Shown here piece after piece: positions 1 through 13,634 of a stretch of DNA of 64,000 nt; positions within the stretch are counted from its first letter, which is position 1; every line of letters begins with the position of its first letter. The stretch is taken from IMG/VR virus record IMGVR_UViG_3300025383_001098; one strand, given 5' to 3'. The translations under genes were made by a program, and so were the position numbers. The notes beneath the pieces were generated by a model, which worked only from the letters and a program-made list of their open reading frames with translations, had not been told where the DNA came from and made no database searches. Origin of the DNA: a virus.

Positions 1-90
1 TGCGTCAATACTATGCTGTCCATAATCAACTACAATCCCTAATAGGTAGTTATACCGCAGAGCTTGAAAAACGGCGTCAAAAACCCACGG

Positions 91-119
91 TTGCCCAATA
101 AATCCCAAAATGTTATAAT
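91..119 (+). promoter_or_regulatory. sigma70-type (early) promoter
   Basis: TTGCCC-17 nt-TATAAT with extended TG; same architecture as promoters at 13132, 13837, 14110, 54888. Confidence 0.65.
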
Positions 120-124
120 ATTAT

Positions 125-132
125 TATAAATA
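125..132 (+). promoter_or_regulatory. T4-type late promoter TATAAATA
   Basis: exact TATAAATA 8 nt before ATG 141. Confidence 0.7.
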
Positions 133-140
133 GTAGTACT

Positions 141-599
141 ATGAAGATAACCGATATTTTAACTGAACAAGAGATAGCCGAAATGAATCGTCGAGATTTT
201 CTTAAAGGAGCAGGCGCCGCTGTTGGTGCCGCCGCATTAGGAGGAGCCGCTGGTCAAGCTAAAGCAACATCAAAAGAAGAATTAGAGGCCGTAGTCAATG
301 TAATAGGCGTTTTAGTAGTAGCCCAAGAATTTTTACAATCTGGCGGCAGCCAAGGACAGGATCCTGGATTTGACGCACAAACAAATAAAGTTGTAGGATA
401 TGCTAAAGCCTCGTTGAGCAAATGGGCACAAAATCGTAAAGGCGGTAGAGAATACTTAAATCAAGAATATGCGGCAATGAAGAGAAATATTCAAGATGCT
501 CGAAAAATCAATGCTAAAAATACTGGCAACTGGGAAGCTCAGATTCTTGCTAACTACAAAATGTATATTCAGCAGTTAGATGATTATTCTCAATTCTGA
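141..599 (+). CDS. hypothetical protein with internal twin-arginine (Tat) signal after an acidic leader
   Basis: MKITDILTEQEIAE then MNRRDFLK, Ala/Gly h-region and AKA site. Confidence 0.75.
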   Translation: MKITDILTEQEIAEMNRRDFLKGAGAAVGAAALGGAAGQAKATSKEELEAVVNVIGVLVVAQEFLQSGGSQGQDPGFDAQTNKVVGYAKASLSKWAQNRKGGREYLNQEYAAMKRNIQDARKINAKNTGNWEAQILANYKMYIQQLDDYSQF

Positions 600-623
600 C
601 AGATTACATAAAAATAAAATAAT

Positions 624-646
624 AAAAGCCCCGCAAGGGGCTTTTT
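624..646 (+). terminator. intrinsic terminator (possibly bidirectional)
   Basis: AAAAGCCCC-GCAA-GGGGCTTTTT. Confidence 0.9.
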
Positions 647-663
647 AATCAATGAGGGAAAAT

Positions 664-828
664 ATGAAAAATATTGATGTAGAAAAGTTTAACACAGAAA
701 CAAAGTCATTACAGGAAAGTGTTATTACACAAAAGTCTAACAAATATCAACAATCAAAGATCGTTAAAAAACAGAACAATACTTTGAATCTTCTTGACAA
801 GATCAAGACAGCGGTTAAGCAAGGTTAG
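664..828 (+). CDS. small hypothetical protein (54 aa), absent from ORF track
   Basis: GAGGG upstream, ATG 664, MKNIDVEKFNTETKSLQESVITQKSNK...AVKQG, TAG. Confidence 0.5.
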   Translation: MKNIDVEKFNTETKSLQESVITQKSNKYQQSKIVKKQNNTLNLLDKIKTAVKQG

Positions 829-829
829 A

Positions 830-975
830 CAGGATTCAGGAACGGCAACGGTCCTGCGATGTAATCGGCAGACCCACACTTGCAAGAGACGATTCGTCTG
901 CTTCCGCTGTACACGAAACGTGGGATGGGCTGTGTACACGGGGTTTGGCAGTTTCCTGACATAAAAATAACTGCC
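830..975 (+). ncRNA. candidate structured RNA with long-range pseudoknot (family unknown)
   Basis: GC-rich non-coding stretch; CAGGAT/GTCCTG, CAGACCC/GGGTTTG and GGCAGTT/AACTGCC stems; loop TCAGGAA complementary to TTCCTGA. Confidence 0.5.
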
Positions 976-982
976 ATTTACA

Positions 983-1011
983 TTGACATTGTATTGTAAA
1001 TACAGTATAAT
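983..1011 (+). promoter_or_regulatory. perfect consensus sigma70 promoter
   Basis: TTGACA(983-988)-17 nt-TATAAT(1006-1011). Confidence 0.9.
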
Positions 1012-1016
1012 CAATT

Positions 1017-1305
1017 AAAGGTAAAAAGTTTAGGTACAGGTGTGACGACCATCTGATACTAATAGGAAGCAGAGTATGTAGCAACGCAAGATGAGCCGCT
1101 CGAAAATTTTGCAATATCGGGTATTCCCGAAGCGGCACCAGTATTTCAAAGCTACGAAACCGCTGATATTTTGTTAACACATACGATAATTAGTTTTCTT
1201 GCAAACAGTTTTACTTATTGTATGGTACTGAGCCTGAGCGATATCTCGGGAGTAAACAATCTATAGTTGTAAAGCAGATTTTATGTACCTAAACTTTTTA
1301 CCTTT
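1017..1305 (+). ncRNA. candidate ~289-nt large structured ncRNA closed by a perfect 22-bp terminal stem
   Basis: 1017-1038 AAAGGTAAAAAGTTTAGGTACA is the exact reverse complement of 1284-1305; many nested internal stems; starts at the predicted +1 and ends at the tRNA 5' end. Confidence 0.75.
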
Positions 1306-1390
1306 GCCCCGATGGTGGAATTGGCAGACACGCCGGTCTTAGAAGCCGGTACCGCAAGGTGTGCGAGTTCAAGTCTCGCTTGGGGCACCA
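1306..1390 (+). tRNA. tRNA-Leu (anticodon TAG)
   Basis: cloverleaf; CCGGT-CTTAGAA-GCCGG anticodon arm; long variable arm; GTTCAA T-loop; encoded CCA. Confidence 0.95.
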
Positions 1391-1411
1391 AAATTTAAGA
1401 AAGGAGTTGGC

Positions 1412-1555
1412 ATGTCTACTAAAGAAACTTTAGATCGAGCATACGGTAATATGCCCAAGGAAGTTAGCGGAAATTTTGATTTCTTTGATTTTGTACCAAC
1501 TCCGCGTGGTATAAAATATTATTGGTATCGATTGATACGTAAAATAACAAGATAA
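1412..1555 (+). CDS. small hypothetical protein (47 aa)
   Basis: AAGGAG SD then ATG 1412; the ORF-track start at 1361 lies inside the tRNA. Confidence 0.6.
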   Translation: MSTKETLDRAYGNMPKEVSGNFDFFDFVPTPRGIKYYWYRLIRKITR

Positions 1556-1562
1556 AGAACAT

Positions 1563-1657
1563 GGTGAGCTGGCCGAGTTGGTCGAAGGCACTTTCCTGCT
1601 AAGAAAGCATACGGGCCAAAACCTGTATCAAGAGTTCGAATCTCTTGCTCACCGCCA
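1563..1657 (+). tRNA. tRNA-Ser (anticodon GCT)
   Basis: GGTGAGC/GCTCACC acceptor stem; CTTTC-CTGCTAA-GAAAG; long variable arm; GTTCGAAT; CCA. Confidence 0.95.
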
Positions 1658-1659
1658 AA

Positions 1660-2955
1660 TTAATAAATTACTATTTGCCCATTGATAACATGTTTATGTT
1701 GTCTCTGGGCTATTTCTTTTTTGTGCTCTAAGATTAGAGGTTTTGTTTTAAACCCACCTGCTACTTCAGGAATAGTAGAATCGCCAAAGTAATAATACAG
1801 ACTGTCGAAGGATTTTATGTTTGTTGCACGGCCATCAATGTATTCAACAAAATCCAAATCAACATTGTTGACCAAGTAGTCAATGCCGGCTTCCCACGAA
1901 TTATACAATTTAGAATCTTTAAAATTAACGTGGAACCAATGGTCCATTTCGTTATAAACATTATTGGTTGGCTTTGCAGTTTGGAATGTATGAAAATCGT
2001 AATCGGGATAAACAATATGCTTTACCAATTGTTCATATAGGGTACGCTGGGCAAAGTTATTATTGGGCCACTGTAATACACTTTGCATCTGATAATTCTG
2101 TGGCATACTGAACCAATTTTTTACCGCGTGTATTTGTTTGGCCAATAAACGACATGATTCGGGTGCCCAGAAGAAATATTCATTTACTACCCCTGATGTA
2201 TCTCCTACCGTGGCATTTGTATAACTGGCAATGCCGTCAATAAAATACATAAAGAATTTTCCATCTTTAATGAATACCTTGGGTTTATCTACTCCATAGA
2301 GTAAACATACCTTGTTTTTACTTTCAACTATCCGATGTTGATCCCCAAGGAATGAGTCATCAAACTTGTGTATATGGCCAGGCTGTAGATAATGCTTGGT
2401 GCGGAAAATCCAAGATTCGTCTTTGGAGTCGGATTCGGCAATCATGTCCTCGCTGTAATCGTGTACAGTGATCTTTGTAGCAGGATAATTAGTAGCAATC
2501 CACTGTAGTAATGGTCTTGCGGCAAACTCCCACTCGCTTAGAGTATTTTCGGCCCTGGTGTCAAATATATTGCCTACTACACCCTTTTCACCTTGCTTGG
2601 GATAACGAAAGATAACTTCATCTAAATGTATACCGTTTAGTAAGAAACTATAAGCAACGGTGGTACTATCACTTCCTCCACTGAGCTCTAATCTAATATA
2701 GTCGTAAGAGTCTCTTAGTTGTTGAGCACGTTGACGATATAATTCGCGTAGACTTTCTTCTGGCTCTATATGCCAAGGATACTTGACAAACACATCCTCA
2801 TTAAAAAACCATTTAACTTCTTGTTTACGTCGACTGGCATCTAACATGGCTTGAATCTTATTGTAATAGATTTCATTGCCAACCAAATAGTAACCTATCT
2901 TTTTATTAGGCTCAAAGTTAACACCAGCGTGTGAGGTATGTTCGATTATGGGCAT
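1660..2955 (-). CDS. PP-loop (adenine nucleotide alpha hydrolase-like) protein
   Basis: LELSGGSDS PP-loop motif; minus-strand TATAAATA at 2983-2990. Confidence 0.7.
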   Translation of the reverse strand: MPIIEHTSHAGVNFEPNKKIGYYLVGNEIYYNKIQAMLDASRRKQEVKWFFNEDVFVKYPWHIEPEESLRELYRQRAQQLRDSYDYIRLELSGGSDSTTVAYSFLLNGIHLDEVIFRYPKQGEKGVVGNIFDTRAENTLSEWEFAARPLLQWIATNYPATKITVHDYSEDMIAESDSKDESWIFRTKHYLQPGHIHKFDDSFLGDQHRIVESKNKVCLLYGVDKPKVFIKDGKFFMYFIDGIASYTNATVGDTSGVVNEYFFWAPESCRLLAKQIHAVKNWFSMPQNYQMQSVLQWPNNNFAQRTLYEQLVKHIVYPDYDFHTFQTAKPTNNVYNEMDHWFHVNFKDSKLYNSWEAGIDYLVNNVDLDFVEYIDGRATNIKSFDSLYYYFGDSTIPEVAGGFKTKPLILEHKKEIAQRQHKHVINGQIVIY

Positions 2956-3018
2956 TGGGGAGTTGTAATTGATGTGATAAAATATTTATACTATAGTCAA
3001 CTTGTTAAATAGTATTAT

Positions 3019-3094
3019 GCCCCTTTAGCTCATCCGGTAGAGCAACTGATTTGTAATCAGTAGGTGGTCTGTTCGAGTCGGACAAGGGGCACCA
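3019..3094 (+). tRNA. tRNA-Thr (anticodon TGT)
   Basis: GCCCCTT/AAGGGGC acceptor; ACTGA-TTTGTAA-TCAGT; GTTCGAG; CCA; 76 nt. Confidence 0.95.
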
Positions 3095-3112
3095 ACTGCA
3101 AATCGAGGATAT

Positions 3113-3274
3113 ATGGCAAAGACAAAAAAATCAAGTCTACATACCAAAACTGGTAAAATACTTTTGGGCCCACTTAACATTGCCCAACTAACAGACATGT
3201 TAGAAAAAACATCTAAAGCAAAAGAAAAATCCAAAATCCAACGCCGTTTAACTGAATTGACCTCACGCGGTTGA
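3113..3274 (+). CDS. small basic hypothetical protein (53 aa), absent from ORF track
   Basis: GAGG SD; MAKTKKSSLHTKTGKILLGPLNIAQL...ELTSRG, TGA. Confidence 0.65.
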   Translation: MAKTKKSSLHTKTGKILLGPLNIAQLTDMLEKTSKAKEKSKIQRRLTELTSRG

Positions 3275-3299
3275 CCTAAAAATCAATCTATAGTAAACT
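3271..3299 (+). promoter_or_regulatory. sigma70-type promoter
   Basis: TTGACC-17 nt-TAAACT. Confidence 0.55.
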
Positions 3300-3329
3300 G
3301 TTTACTCTACTAACTTTTGGAGTATCGTT

Positions 3330-3836
3330 GTGAAAAAACTATTGGTAATTTTGGGTCTATTTTTGTCGACCACAGCATTTGCCGAACAAGGCGATGTTTG
3401 GGCTACAATCGACACAGTTGGATATCATTTTCAAAACGACAATAAAGCAAACGATTTTAACTATGGCGTAGGTGTTAATTACGAAGTTGTTAATCGATTA
3501 AGTATCGGTGCACGAGTATATCGCAATAGTTTTAAAGATGGCACTATGATCAATGGCCAACCGGCAGAGCTGTATTCCGAGGCCGCTGTTATTGACTATC
3601 GCTTTTGGAACGACGACTTGTGGGCTACACACATTGGATGGCAATTTGCCAATCATTTTGGTCATTCAAACGGTATAGTGTTTCCTCATATGACTGACCT
3701 TCCGTATGCAAGTGTATGCCGTAAAATTGGTGATGCTGATGCTAAATGGCAAGCCTGTGGTCAAGTTACTACTTGGAAAAATACTACAAACGGGTGGGAT
3801 CAATCTGCTTCATTTAAACTACAATATACATTCTAA
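3330..3836 (+). CDS. putative outer-membrane beta-barrel protein (possibly PagP-like)
   Basis: Sec signal ending AFA; alternating beta-strand pattern; C-terminal FKLQYTF beta-signal. Confidence 0.6.
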   Translation: MKKLLVILGLFLSTTAFAEQGDVWATIDTVGYHFQNDNKANDFNYGVGVNYEVVNRLSIGARVYRNSFKDGTMINGQPAELYSEAAVIDYRFWNDDLWATHIGWQFANHFGHSNGIVFPHMTDLPYASVCRKIGDADAKWQACGQVTTWKNTTNGWDQSASFKLQYTF

Positions 3837-3837
3837 T

Positions 3838-4014
3838 ATGACCGAAGAAAAGAAATTTAAAAATCCATTTATTGCCGCTGCACAAGCCGCTAAGGCCGCT
3901 GCCAGTAATCCACGAGTACCCGGAGCCAAAACCACGCAAGTTCAAAAAGCTAAATTTGGCACACAAGTACAGGGTAATAAACCGGCTAAGAAGTCAGCCG
4001 GTCGCGGCCGATAA
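3838..4014 (+). CDS. small Lys/Ala-rich basic protein (58 aa)
   Basis: ATG 3838 right after the previous stop; MTEEKKFKNPFIAAAQAAKAAA...KKSAGRGR. Confidence 0.65.
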   Translation: MTEEKKFKNPFIAAAQAAKAAASNPRVPGAKTTQVQKAKFGTQVQGNKPAKKSAGRGR

Positions 4015-4023
4015 CCAAACAGA

Positions 4024-4052
4024 TTGACTTTAAATGGCCAATCTGTTATACT
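4024..4052 (+). promoter_or_regulatory. sigma70-type promoter
   Basis: TTGACT-17 nt-TATACT with extended TG. Confidence 0.7.
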
Positions 4053-4081
4053 TTATATAGTTCAACCCTAAAGGATTTATC

Positions 4082-4243
4082 ATGTTTGAAAGTTTAGAAA
4101 TTCGCCGTGCAGCAAACGGTTTTATTTTAGTAGTTAATACCGAAGAAGAAGCCACAGAATTTGTCTATGACACTGAGCGTAAATTGATTCGTGTTGTTAA
4201 GCAATACTTAGGTGAGCGTATCACAGAAGCAGATGCCAGTTAA
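4082..4243 (+). CDS. small hypothetical protein (53 aa), absent from ORF track
   Basis: AAGGA SD; MFESLEIRRAANGFILVVNTEEE...; TAATG overlap with next gene. Confidence 0.7.
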   Translation: MFESLEIRRAANGFILVVNTEEEATEFVYDTERKLIRVVKQYLGERITEADAS

Positions 4244-4860
4244 TGACGTTTGACGAATACTTAAACACCCACGAAATTAAAAAACTACAACTTGGTTGTG
4301 GTGGGAATATTCTTCCTGGGTGGTTAAATACCGATGGGCAGGGCGACGGGTGGTTCCATCCCGACAGCGTCAAACTTGATGCAAGTCAACCTTTTCCACT
4401 TCCTGACAATAGTTTTGATTATGTCTACAGCGAACACATGATCGAACATTTACCTTATTGGTCCGGACAGGAAATGTTAAAAGAAAGTTTTCGTGTATTA
4501 AAACCCGGTGGGCGTATTCGTATTAGTTGCCCCGACATGCAGTTTTTAATAGACGCATACACCAATCCCACACAAATACATTTAGATTACATTGAACAGA
4601 CCAAACCAGACTGGGCGCCGTTCCCTGATGCTATTTTTACATTCAACAATTATGTAAGAGATTGGGGTCATCAATTTATCTATAATAAAAGAATTTTAGA
4701 GTTAAGTATGATGGCCGCAGGCTTTACAAACATCACAGAACATAGTATACTTGAGAGTGAAGATCCGGTGTTACAAAACTTAGAAATAGCAACACGTATG
4801 CCGGAGGGATTCTTACAATTAGAAACCATGACTCTTGAGGGAATTAAAGAAGGTGTTTGA
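4243..4860 (+). CDS. class I SAM-dependent methyltransferase (Methyltransf_11-like)
   Basis: LQLGCGG motif I; FPLPDNSFDYVYSEHMIEH; RVLKPGG. Confidence 0.85.
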   Translation: MTFDEYLNTHEIKKLQLGCGGNILPGWLNTDGQGDGWFHPDSVKLDASQPFPLPDNSFDYVYSEHMIEHLPYWSGQEMLKESFRVLKPGGRIRISCPDMQFLIDAYTNPTQIHLDYIEQTKPDWAPFPDAIFTFNNYVRDWGHQFIYNKRILELSMMAAGFTNITEHSILESEDPVLQNLEIATRMPEGFLQLETMTLEGIKEGV

Positions 4861-5569
4861 TACAGATAAATTCTTTTGGCACAATTACATTCCGTTTTAC
4901 GAGAAATTTTTTGCTGACCGAAATTTCACAAAGATTGCTGAAATTGGACTTTTTAAAGGCGATTCAGTTCGTTGGTTATTAAATCGATTTCCTACAAGTG
5001 CTATCATTGGTGCAGACATATTAACACGTCAAGACACCTGGCCCGTTGATGAAAGATTTTTAGACTGTCAACTTGACCAAGGTGATCTACAGGCACTTGA
5101 AAATTTTTTCAGCCTTGGTCCATACGATCTTATAATTGAAGATGGCAGTCATTTTCCCGAACATCAAGTTTCAACACTATTAATAGGTATAAAGCACTTG
5201 ACCAGCGATGGTGTTTATATACTCGAAGACGTTCATACCAGCCACCCTAAACATAAATTAAATAAACAACCTACAGTGGGCAATGCCCTTTCGGTGCTGT
5301 TGGCCTTGGCACACTACAGGAGAAACGGCATTGCTGTTACAGAAGAACGTGCTGAGTTGATTGCTAAAAACTCACTGGTTACTACAGATGAAGTCATTGA
5401 TTTAGATTCTGCCTTAAAAGAAATAGTATTATACAAGCGTACAATTTTACCTGATAAATGTTATGAATGTGGTAGCCAGGATTACGAGTTTAGTCAATAT
5501 CGATGTCAATGTGGCGCAGAAATATTCTCTGACACAGACTCAATGTCATTTGTACTGATCAAGGAATAA
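4853..5569 (+). CDS. class I SAM-dependent methyltransferase (sugar O-methyltransferase-like)
   Basis: AEIGLFKGDS; YDLIIEDGSH; GVYILED; probable GTG start 4853. Confidence 0.75.
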   Translation: MFDTDKFFWHNYIPFYEKFFADRNFTKIAEIGLFKGDSVRWLLNRFPTSAIIGADILTRQDTWPVDERFLDCQLDQGDLQALENFFSLGPYDLIIEDGSHFPEHQVSTLLIGIKHLTSDGVYILEDVHTSHPKHKLNKQPTVGNALSVLLALAHYRRNGIAVTEERAELIAKNSLVTTDEVIDLDSALKEIVLYKRTILPDKCYECGSQDYEFSQYRCQCGAEIFSDTDSMSFVLIKE

Positions 5570-5573
5570 CAAA

Positions 5574-6422
5574 ATGAAAATTTACGATTGTTTTACTTTT
5601 TACAATGAATTAGAAATGCTGGATCTGCACCTGGCAGAACTATACGAACATGTAGACAAATTTGTCATTGTAGAGTCGACTAAAACATTCCAAGGCAATG
5701 ATAAAAGCCTTTTCTTAAAGTTGAATTGGAATCGTTACATCAAGTATCATGATAAAATTATTCATGTTATTGTAGATGACAGCCCCTGTAGCTCAAACGC
5801 CTGGGACAATGAAACGTTCCAGCGTAATGCTATTATGCGTGGACTAACTGGCGCCGATGCCGATGACATTTGTATTATTGGTGATGTAGACGAAATACTT
5901 CGACCAGAAGTTGTTGATCAAATACGTGCTAACCCAAAAGATATTATGGGGTTTCGTGTACCATACTTTAACTTTAAATTTAATTATATGTTGGTTAACA
6001 ACAATGAAAGTTACTTTGTTTGGACAACCGCTTGCCGTCGCAAGTTATTAGAAGATCCAGACCAATTTAGACGTACACGATTTGAATTAAATAATCTTCC
6101 AATTGACTACGAAGATGCTACCATTAAGATGTACGAACATGCTGGTTGGCATTTTACCTACCTGGGTGATGCCGAATTTATTCGTAACAAGATTCGCAGT
6201 TTTAGTCATGCTGAATTAAACTATGACGAGTTTTTAAATAAAATCAATGTTGATGAAATGATTGAGCGTGGTGTAGGATTTAATCCATTAGATCCAAGAC
6301 CATTTGTAGCAGTAACATTAGATGATTATTTCCCCAAGACTATAGTTAATAATCCAGCTCGGTATCAGACTCAAATTGTCGAAGGTGCTACAAAAAGTGC
6401 CCGTGAAATTTTTAGCCTATAA
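5574..6422 (+). CDS. glycosyltransferase family 17 (GnT-III/MGAT3-like)
   Basis: KIYDCFTFYNELEML; FVIVES; QRNAI; GDVDEI; AGWHFTY; KIRSFSHAE. Confidence 0.85.
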   Translation: MKIYDCFTFYNELEMLDLHLAELYEHVDKFVIVESTKTFQGNDKSLFLKLNWNRYIKYHDKIIHVIVDDSPCSSNAWDNETFQRNAIMRGLTGADADDICIIGDVDEILRPEVVDQIRANPKDIMGFRVPYFNFKFNYMLVNNNESYFVWTTACRRKLLEDPDQFRRTRFELNNLPIDYEDATIKMYEHAGWHFTYLGDAEFIRNKIRSFSHAELNYDEFLNKINVDEMIERGVGFNPLDPRPFVAVTLDDYFPKTIVNNPARYQTQIVEGATKSAREIFSL

Positions 6423-8969: not shown

Positions 8970-9856
8970 AATTAGAAAATCCTTTTAACATATTGGTACG
9001 CAGACGTAGTGCCATTGGCGACGTTATTATGAGTACCGGTGTAGTTCGCGAACTAAAACGTCGCTATGGCGATAATGCCAATATTGACGTAGCCACAGAC
9101 GTTTTTGATGTATATCGCAATAATCCCAATGTTCGTAATATTATCCCAACAGATGGAGCAGATCCATCTAAGTATGAACTTTATATTAATTTAGATGATG
9201 CTTACGAAGTTAATCCTACAGAGCATTATGTAGACAATTATTTTTATCGTGCATTTGGCGATTCTGCTACATTAAATCGTAGCGTTGAATTATTTCCTAC
9301 TGAGTCAGATAAAAAAGAAGTTGATGCAGATTTAGCAGATATTGGCAATAAGTTTATTGTAGTTCATATGCGTAACTGGCACTGGGCAGCAAAGAATATC
9401 ACCATGGATGTTTGGTTTGATGTTTATGCTAAACTATTTTCTGAACGCACAGACTTTAAAATTGTAATACTTGGTGGCAAAACAGATTTTACAGTCGAAG
9501 ATCATCCCTTGTTCTTTGATGCACGTGATAGATATAATAATCAACAAATGAAATATCTATGTGATCATGCCGCTTGTTTTATAGGCATAGACTCCGGGCC
9601 TTATTGGTGTGCAGCAGCAAGCGACACACATATTGTTGCCTTACTAACACATCTACGACCAGAACGTATTGTGCCACATCGCCATTTGGATACAAATTGG
9701 AACGCTACACCTATTCCCACACTTGAAGATTGTGCTGGCTGTAATGATGTACAACAAAGACCTATTAGACAAATTGTTTGTAAAAAACAAACATATCCTT
9801 GTGCCAATAATTTTGATACGGATGCAATAGCAAAGGCGATCCTGGAACAATTATGA
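8966..9856 (+). CDS. glycosyltransferase family 9 (heptosyltransferase-like)
   Basis: RRSAIGDVIM; FIGIDSGP; C-terminal CAGC...C...C. Confidence 0.8.
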   Translation: MKLENPFNILVRRRSAIGDVIMSTGVVRELKRRYGDNANIDVATDVFDVYRNNPNVRNIIPTDGADPSKYELYINLDDAYEVNPTEHYVDNYFYRAFGDSATLNRSVELFPTESDKKEVDADLADIGNKFIVVHMRNWHWAAKNITMDVWFDVYAKLFSERTDFKIVILGGKTDFTVEDHPLFFDARDRYNNQQMKYLCDHAACFIGIDSGPYWCAAASDTHIVALLTHLRPERIVPHRHLDTNWNATPIPTLEDCAGCNDVQQRPIRQIVCKKQTYPCANNFDTDAIAKAILEQL

Positions 9857-10760: not shown

Positions 10761-12685
<1,925 letters not shown>

Positions 12686-12706: not shown

Positions 12707-12748
12707 ACCCGCTATGCCTCTTAATAATGCACACTTTAGCGGGTTTTT
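12707..12748 (+). terminator. terminator-like hairpin with a 22-nt loop
   Basis: ACCCGCTA...TAGCGGGT followed by TTTT. Confidence 0.6.
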
Positions 12749-13169: not shown

Positions 13170-13634
13170 ATGAAATATTTTGCGTATGGTATGAATACCA
13201 ACCGGTCTCAAATGGCCACCCGTTGCCCCAAGGCTCAAAGTTTAGGGCAAGCCCTGCTGCCCGAACACGAATTCCGTTTCAGCGTTCATGCTGACATTAT
13301 CCCAAACCCCGATTTCGATACCGAAGGTGTATTATGGGAAATCACCGAAGACTGTGAACGGGCCCTGGATGCCTTGGAAGGATTTCCTAACTACTATGAA
13401 AAGAAAATAGTCAGCGTTCTACACGAAGGCCAATGGGTAGAAGCAATGACATATTACATGACCGGTGATTTTCCCGACTCATATCCCAGCGACGGCTACT
13501 TGGCCATGCTTTATCAAGGATACGCAGAACACGGGGTTGATGAATCACAAATTGATGACAGTTTAGATTATATTCTTTGTTTAAATCGATATGCAATTGA
13601 AGCAGAATCAAAATATTTTCAATACTTTAATTAA
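13170..13634 (+). CDS. gamma-glutamylcyclotransferase (AIG2-like) family protein
   Basis: YFAYGMN; GVLWEI; LDALEG; YY; PS..Y. Confidence 0.85.
   Translation: MKYFAYGMNTNRSQMATRCPKAQSLGQALLPEHEFRFSVHADIIPNPDFDTEGVLWEITEDCERALDALEGFPNYYEKKIVSVLHEGQWVEAMTYYMTGDFPDSYPSDGYLAMLYQGYAEHGVDESQIDDSLDYILCLNRYAIEAESKYFQYFN

Follow-up and report, generated by a model that had tools for sequence, protein, structure and literature searches.

A conserved structured RNA gene beside the tRNA genes of an uncultured freshwater jumbo phage

What is encoded between a perfect promoter and a tRNA gene that stand about 290 nucleotides apart on a viral DNA, and what might such a product do for a phage? The DNA analysed here, a stretch of 64,000 nucleotides (IMG/VR record IMGVR_UViG_3300025383_001098; below, the window), encodes a chaperonin, a primase, a DnaB-type helicase, a ribonucleotide reductase, tail proteins and a sugar-modification operon. 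By helicase, its nearest cultured relatives are PA5oct, a Pseudomonas jumbo phage, and the Agrobacterium phage Atu_ph07, whose helicases are ~52% identical to that of the window. This kinship, together with the presence of window DNA in freshwater and lake metagenomes, assigns the window to an uncultured freshwater jumbo phage. We judge the related IMG/VR contigs to be fragments of phages of ~300-370 kb, and the sigma70-type promoters and outer-membrane-type genes suggest that the host is Gram-negative. Elsewhere in the window, right after the chaperonin gene (11066-12685), an abiF RNA motif (RF03085) was detected at 12708-12744, with 41.7 bits against an Rfam gathering score of 37; the ORF that follows the motif (13170-13634) encodes a GGACT/AIG2-like protein, not an AbiF protein.

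The promoter consists of TTGACA (983-988) and TATAAT (1006-1011) on either side of a 17-nt spacer, and it is the sole promoter with a complete consensus match in positions 1-6000. Six bases past TATAAT, at 1017, begins the 22-mer AAAGGTAAAAAGTTTAGGTACA, whose exact reverse complement occupies 1284-1305; the two arms (1017-1038 and 1284-1305) form a perfect 22-bp inverted repeat, and the tRNA-Leu gene starts at the very next base, the distance between the two genes being 0 nt and the base at -1 of the tRNA being U. A first-pass annotation had described this arrangement of a perfect promoter, a perfect 22-bp stem and a tRNA without spacer, and motif, repeat, ARAGORN and Rfam scans confirmed it. 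No other inverted repeat of at least 18 nt within 600 nt exists across the 64 kb. The arms do not occur a second time in the window when up to three mismatches are allowed, and 100 shuffles gave 0 matches. The folding energy of the 289-nt RNA is -84.2 kcal/mol (z = -4.89 against 200 shuffles). The features of the locus are:

983..1011, plus strand: sigma70-type promoter TTGACA-17-TATAAT, 12/12 consensus match, predicted +1 at about 1017-1019
1017..1305, plus strand: structured non-coding RNA gene of 289 nt, long form (covariance model, covariation, Rfam negative)
1306..1390, plus strand: tRNA-Leu(TAG), CCA encoded (ARAGORN; Rfam tRNA 54.4 bits)
1412..1555, plus strand: 47-codon ORF of the same apparent operon, with a strong AAGGAG ribosome-binding site
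1563..1657, plus strand: tRNA-Ser(GCT), the next gene in the same orientation (ARAGORN, Rfam)

The 47-codon ORF, which lies between tRNA-Leu and tRNA-Ser, matches nothing in Pfam or PHROG. Between tRNA-Ser and tRNA-Thr, on the opposite strand, lies a gene for a 431-amino-acid protein (1660-2955, minus strand) that has no Pfam family and a marginal PHROG match only; its homologues, 45-71% identical, are found on at least 30 IMG/VR contigs and usually adjoin tRNA genes.

The first homologues of the RNA were reached through this 431-amino-acid neighbour, two of the 30 viral loci retrieved with it carrying the RNA element. A covariance model (R1) built from the first four sequences served to screen pattern scans of IMG/VR and of metagenomes. 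In the metagenome scan 4 of 76 stretches were real, representing three phages, and the family model run over the whole contigs of 19 related phage records added two members. The homologue search in viral metagenomes proposed by the first-pass annotation thus yielded a family of 20 distinct members, window included, together with a strong compensatory signal (see below). The members, drawn from IMG/VR and from lake metagenome contigs, all lie on viral or lake metagenome contigs of uncultured freshwater jumbo phages, measure 263-295 nt and reach full-length covariance-model scores of 72-320 bits; L091 is identical to the window sequence. A terminal helix (P1) of ~20 bp, the hairpin TATCGG-T--T-CCGA, the stretch ATTT-A-A and the junction GT-G-AA-CA follow one another in the same order in all 20. 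Two forms can be distinguished: a long form of 284-295 nt (11 members, among them the window) and a short form of 263-275 nt (9 members), in which the 3' domain is swapped for two different hairpins.

The window has a single copy, as has each of the contigs G002 (374 kb) and G004. The family is absent from G001 and G003, two fairly complete records of related phages, hence the RNA is not essential to the wider phage group; most of the other records among the 19 are 3-40% fragments, in which absence says little. The exact 22-mer has no match in IMG/VR. Among GenBank phages, blastn with positions 900-1700, with 1-25000 and with one short-form member returned only tRNAs, a groEL segment, or nothing. 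The family model found nothing above 14.4 bits in PA5oct and Atu_ph07, model R1, run unfiltered on the T4 tRNA cluster (NC_000866, 68000-76000), scored at most 9.4 bits, and a scan of 185,579 prokaryote species with the core pattern gave one match, which the model rejected.

Comparison of the members bears on whether the element is an RNA and on which strand it is read. RNAalifold applied to 4 sequences found compensatory changes in 35 of 78 pairs. In an alignment of 17 sequences, 93.5% of the cells at predicted pairs are paired and compensatory double changes occur in 58 of the 78 pairs; this alignment was fitted to the model, which inflates the pairing somewhat, yet the margin is very large, and a first analysis based on MAFFT agrees with it. 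None of 500 shuffles of the 17-sequence alignment reached any of five measures, and sliding the 3' partners by 1-3 columns reduced pairing to 37-41%. G-U plus U-G pairs number 130 against 15 A-C plus C-A, an excess which identifies the plus strand as the RNA strand, and the covariance model scores 319.6 bits on the plus strand and 30.8 bits on the minus strand. No reading frame is open across the family members, in keeping with the earlier observation that the plus strand holds no credible ORF. On this comparative evidence, 1017-1305 is a real, conserved gene for a structured non-coding RNA on the plus strand.

The comparative fold comprises the following elements:

1018-1038 / 1284-1304, plus strand: terminal helix P1, 21 pairs, 17 compensatory, 98% paired (17 sequences)
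1039..1050, plus strand: P2, hairpin GGT/ACC with the conserved loop GTGACG, 100% paired, two of three pairs compensatory
1051-1055 / 1275-1279, plus strand: P3, ATCTG/CAGAT, 100% paired
1058-1066 / 1260-1267, plus strand: P4, 8 pairs, 4 compensatory, 92% paired
1068-1072 / 1160-1164, plus strand: 5'-domain helix (comparative consensus)
1078-1082 / 1151-1155, plus strand: 5'-domain helix GTAGC/GCTAC, every pair compensatory, 93% paired
1086-1091 / 1197-1202, plus strand: pseudoknot of GCAAGA with the hairpin loop TCTTGC, 5-7 bp, covarying in all 11 long-form members
1095-1100 / 1131-1136, plus strand: core helix GCCGCT/AGCGGC, with a 16-nt bulge and the hairpin TATCGGGTATTCCCGA inside it
1117-1121 / 1126-1130, plus strand: hairpin TCGGG/CCCGA, within the core 1095-1136
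1143..1150, plus strand: conserved unpaired stretch ATTT-A-A, identical in at least 19 of 20
1171..1259, plus strand: 3' domain, with closing helix 1171-1175/1255-1259 and hairpins 1193-1206, 1211-1228 and 1233-1250
1233-1239 / 1244-1250, plus strand: helix CCTGAG/CTCGGG (comparative consensus)
1268..1279, plus strand: conserved junction TGTAAAG, then the P3 3' strand CAGAT (family conservation)

The window copy has the longest P1 stem of the family, and a perfect one. The inner half of P1 is conserved in sequence as well, which suggests recognition beyond mere pairing. Forty-six positions are identical in at least 19 of the 20 members, clustering at 1115-1130, at 1143-1150, in the P3/J region and in GT-G-AA--CA (1266-1276). 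The most conserved part is the core, 1095-1136, where TATCGG-T--T-CCGA (1115-1130) is identical in at least 19 of 20 while the loop-closing pair of its hairpin covaries from G-C to A-T; the G and C of the P2 loop are likewise conserved in at least 19 of 20. At the place equivalent to the pseudoknot, long-form relatives carry GCAAAA/TTTTGC, GCAAGT/ACTTGC, GTAAGA/TCTTAC and even the unrelated pair CACATCT/AGATGTG, good evidence for a pseudoknot linking the 5' and 3' domains. The P2 loop (GAC/GGC) might also form a tertiary pairing with the GTTG/GTCG junction, a weak candidate: all members are compatible with it, and the changes are one-sided only.

From the single sequence, eight internal helices had been proposed, of which the comparative consensus supports five. 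ATCTG/CAGAT, GCCGCT/AGCGGC, TCGGG/CCCGA and CCTGAG/CTCGGG were upheld as drawn. The fifth, GTAGC(1078)/GCTAC(1151), had been offered as a possible pseudoknot; its pairing holds, as an ordinary nested helix. The other three, AGGAAGC/GTTTTCT, GTATGT/ACATAC and TTTACT/AGTAAA, are complementary in the window sequence only and are not kept in relatives; they fail the comparative test and were rejected as helices of the family.

The surroundings of the RNA, like its fold, recur from phage to phage, and 17 of the 20 members lie no more than ~100 nt from a tRNA gene. On the 5' side, members without a tRNA directly upstream show a promoter-like -35/-10 pair that ends 3-10 nt before P1. TTGACA-17-TATAAT precedes the RNA in the window, L001, L032 and L117, and TTGACA-17-TATACT in L130, L128 and L114. 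In five short-form members the RNA starts 0-4 nt past the encoded CCA of a tRNA-Ser; in L124 (7049-7141) and L114 (2111-2200), the tRNA-Ser directly upstream of the short-form RNA has the anticodon ACT. On the 3' side, the RNA usually ends 0-24 nt ahead of a tRNA. This is tRNA-Leu(TAG) in 8 long-form members, at 0-1 nt in the window, L001 and L019 and at 12-14 nt in L032, L130, L118, L117 and L128, and tRNA-Thr(TGT) in four short-form members, after 12-18 nt; altogether, six long-form and four short-form members have a spacer of 12-24 nt. Downstream of the RNA in L087, L110 and L111 are a ribosome-binding site and an ORF, within 11-80 nt. In L137 the order is promoter, RNA and then directly a GC hairpin with a T-run terminator, so that in L137 the RNA is a stand-alone gene.

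What stays constant across these arrangements is that the RNA begins at the foot of P1 and occupies a position in the tRNA array with the spacing usual between tRNAs; blunt abutment is a local variant. The first-pass annotation had recognised an undescribed structured non-coding RNA between a promoter and a tRNA, and this part of its interpretation stands. Blunt abutment is not general: it is seen in the window, L001 and L019 (0-1 nt) and gives way elsewhere to a spacer, an ORF or a terminator. On this point and in the three lost helices the interpretation had to be revised. The same spacers, ORFs and terminator mean that RNase P cutting at the tRNA, from which the first-pass annotation had derived the 3' end, does not apply to all members; for the window the suggestion has the support of the gene arrangement alone.

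Several other elements were noticed in the tRNA islands of these phages. In L019 (8864-9592) the abutting tRNA-Leu is split, its 5' half running from 8865 onward and its 3' end lying at ~9560-9592; the insert holds a 152-codon ORF, weakly matching His-Me/HNH homing endonucleases, and a complete second tRNA-Leu(TAG) at 9388-9472, and looks like a homing-endonuclease cassette with a replacement tRNA. L012 carries, at 1432-1507, a tRNA with the anticodon CTA, amber-reading and called 'Pyl'. In contigs of related jumbo phages (L005, 7799-8230; L021-L023, 7081-7698; L030, 9297-9684), ARAGORN finds tmRNA genes of the permuted (two-piece) kind, their tags reading ...ALAA; they adjoin a homologue of the 431-amino-acid gene. 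No tmRNA was found in any of the loci examined around the RNA. Small omega-like ORFs are present in L087 (8663-8863, minus strand), L117 (8598-8792, minus strand) and L124 (6773-6958, plus strand), with PF01192 above cut-off in L117 and L124.

Part of 900-1700 was found in nine metatranscriptomic runs, four of which were examined. The contigs from these four lake metatranscriptome libraries are 99.8-100% identical to the window; being assembled contigs, they speak for presence only and are silent on strand, ends and level, and DNA carry-over is conceivable. One contig each covers 1042-1334 (X11) and 1046-1314 (X16) with 0 differences. A third, again with 0 differences (X19, 1102-1403), bridges the junction of the RNA with tRNA-Leu and contains the whole tRNA. 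The fourth (X14, 831-1284, 1 difference) crosses the promoter, so that upstream read-through, or DNA carried into the library, is possible. In the four runs there was no contig on 1-800 or on 1743-2948, which is not evidence of silence there.

The sequence just upstream of the promoter, 820-982, is GC-richer and is itself conserved (nhmmer). In L001, L117 and L087 its homologues immediately precede the RNA; in L019, L119 and L114 they lie kilobases from it. Contigs of all four RNA libraries cover 831-934 and then diverge from the window sequence. It is probably a second, separate family of non-coding RNA.

What, then, does the gene make? We consider it likely that 1017-1305 on the plus strand encodes a compact non-coding RNA of ~290 nt, belonging to an uncatalogued family of freshwater jumbo phages, which is processed along with tRNAs and probably acts in trans. 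Host sigma70 RNA polymerase would start at the foot of the terminal helix from the promoter at 983-1011, and the RNA would be transcribed as the first unit of a tRNA operon that continues with tRNA-Leu, the small ORF and tRNA-Ser. As in bacterial tRNA maturation, a cut by RNase P at +1 of tRNA-Leu would form the 3' end of the RNA; in relatives with tRNA-Ser upstream, 3' processing of that tRNA would form the 5' end. Bacterial RNase P usually contacts a single-stranded 5' leader, and cleavage may be slower when the leader is paired throughout. RNase III, for its part, could act on a perfect 22-bp duplex and would then yield other ends. Once released, the RNA should be shielded from end-dependent nucleases by the terminal helix of 21-22 bp, which pairs both of its ends; such paired, nearly blunt ends would resist 5' entry of the RppH/RNase E type as well as 3' exonucleases. 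The pseudoknot would lock the 5' and 3' domains into a globular fold, whose working surface is likely to be formed by the nearly invariant hairpin and junctions. Such a fold, globular, pseudoknotted and with an invariant hairpin and invariant junctions, suggests a specific partner or activity, and we infer that the RNA most probably works in trans, as a stable binder of a protein or another RNA.

A bolder proposal, which we regard as doubtful, is that the RNA represents a new functional class: a ribozyme, an RNA-only assembly, or a decoy that, during infection by the jumbo phage, neutralises a host defence aimed at RNA or readjusts translation or transcription. The invariant hairpin and junctions would then be an active site or binding pocket, and the host tRNA-processing machinery the means of delivery.

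The element might instead work only in cis, as a leader or processing module that stabilises or insulates the tRNA/mRNA transcript, orders the nuclease cuts or regulates the downstream genes, with no role as a free RNA. The RNA always stands at the 5' end of a transcription unit or within one, the X19 contig runs from it into tRNA-Leu, the three members named above have a ribosome-binding site and an ORF within 11-80 nt downstream, and 5'-terminal stem structures do guard bacterial transcripts from RNase E. However, the genes downstream vary, being tRNA-Leu, tRNA-Thr, an omega homologue, unrelated small ORFs or, in L137, a terminator only, and a pseudoknotted fold of ~290 nt with 46 near-invariant positions goes far beyond the needs of a protective hairpin. 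We therefore think a purely cis-acting module unlikely.

The omega homologue raises another alternative, in which the RNA is a regulator directed at RNA polymerase that works with a phage omega subunit, like 6S or Ms1, abundant bacterial regulatory RNAs that bind RNA polymerase. Omega-like ORFs share the tRNA islands with the RNA in 10 of the 20 loci, in L087 directly downstream of it; PF01192 matches rise above cut-off, and two more RNA-bearing contigs have one. With 6S and Ms1 the RNA has in common its paired ends and an omega homologue that is often nearby, but it differs from them in having no Rfam 6S or Ms1 match and in being multi-branched and pseudoknotted where 6S is a rod with a central bubble. 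Moreover, the one complete genome with the RNA, G002 (374 kb), lacks a PF01192 match, the 100-kb fragment G006 has one while the RNA was not found there, and the 64-kb window holds no omega gene. The co-occurrence is a frequent tendency, not an obligatory one, and may merely reflect common residence in tRNA islands, which leaves a partnership with omega quite improbable.

It is more improbable still that the RNA belongs, as a divergent member, to one of the known classes (RNase P RNA, tmRNA, 6S, SRP, Y RNA, ROOL or GOLLD). A terminal helix joins its 5' end to its 3' end, as in RNase P RNA, tmRNA and Y RNA, its place in a tRNA island would suit ROOL and GOLLD, and related phages do encode tmRNA. 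Against this, the scan of Rfam 15 matched no family at gathering score, at E<=10 on 600-1700 of the window or at E<=1 in eight other members, the outcome that the first-pass annotation had named as a sign of novelty; the ROOL and GOLLD covariance models were silent over the same ranges, no Rfam tmRNA family matched, and RNase P RNA gave no Rfam match at E<=10. ARAGORN calls no tmRNA in the window, and a tRNA-like T arm, a CCA end and a tag frame are missing from the RNA. CR-I and CR-V, which we take to be the signature motifs of RNase P RNA, are absent from 1017-1305 as judged by eye.

Least credible is an element of the DNA itself, be it a MITE beside a tRNA, a cruciform, an origin or a packaging signal: a perfect 22-bp terminal inverted repeat with arms ~290 bp apart and next to a tRNA gene does fit the dimensions of a MITE, but the element is single-copy, its flanks (CAATT and GCCCC) show no target-site duplication, its syntenic position is shared by divergent phages, 12 internal helices carry compensatory changes, and a G-U to A-C ratio of 130:15 is explicable only for one RNA strand. 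A MITE in particular is in effect refuted by the unduplicated flanks and by the single copy in the window and on each of the contigs G002 and G004.

The likely product is thus a tRNA-processed, probably trans-acting RNA, and no prior description of the family was found in the literature, of which our coverage is incomplete. The family is previously uncatalogued and takes its place among the orphan folded RNAs of phage tRNA islands. Giant phages hold in these islands folded RNAs of unknown purpose, and the recurring tRNA slot suggests a general route by which phages deliver stable RNAs through borrowed host tRNA-processing enzymes. With ~290 nt, very strong covariation, a pseudoknot, a near-invariant core and a presence in lake RNA libraries, the family is tractable for work on structure and partners, even if the lack of a cultured phage carrier so far limits immediate experiments.

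Two known systems invite comparison. ROOL and GOLLD, which have been studied by cryo-EM (PMC12286853), are large RNAs of unknown function with elaborate folds; phages and prophages encode them, often close to tRNA islands. The present family resembles them in its phage location in tRNA islands and in its elaborate fold; it differs in that neither sequence nor structure matches and in size, ~290 nt here against hundreds of nucleotides, and >800 nt in many cases for GOLLD. As regards RNA-only homo-oligomeric cages, inspection by eye revealed no conserved self-complementary loop in the family. The second system is the pair of T4 RNAs rnaC and rnaD (species 1 and 2), stable RNAs still without known function (PMC9697503). 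Within the tRNA cluster of T4 they adjoin tRNA-Arg, with gaps of 1-6 nt to their neighbours. Run unfiltered, model R1 gives only 4.4-4.7 bits over both, so they are not homologous to the present RNA, and at 139 and 119 nt they are shorter than its 289 nt. What they share with it is the manner of being encoded, as a unit inside a tRNA operon, here at a distance of 0-4 nt from an upstream tRNA-Ser and of 0-24 nt from the tRNA that follows; fifty years after T4 RNAs C and D, a new, defined family offers a further handle on the function of such RNAs.
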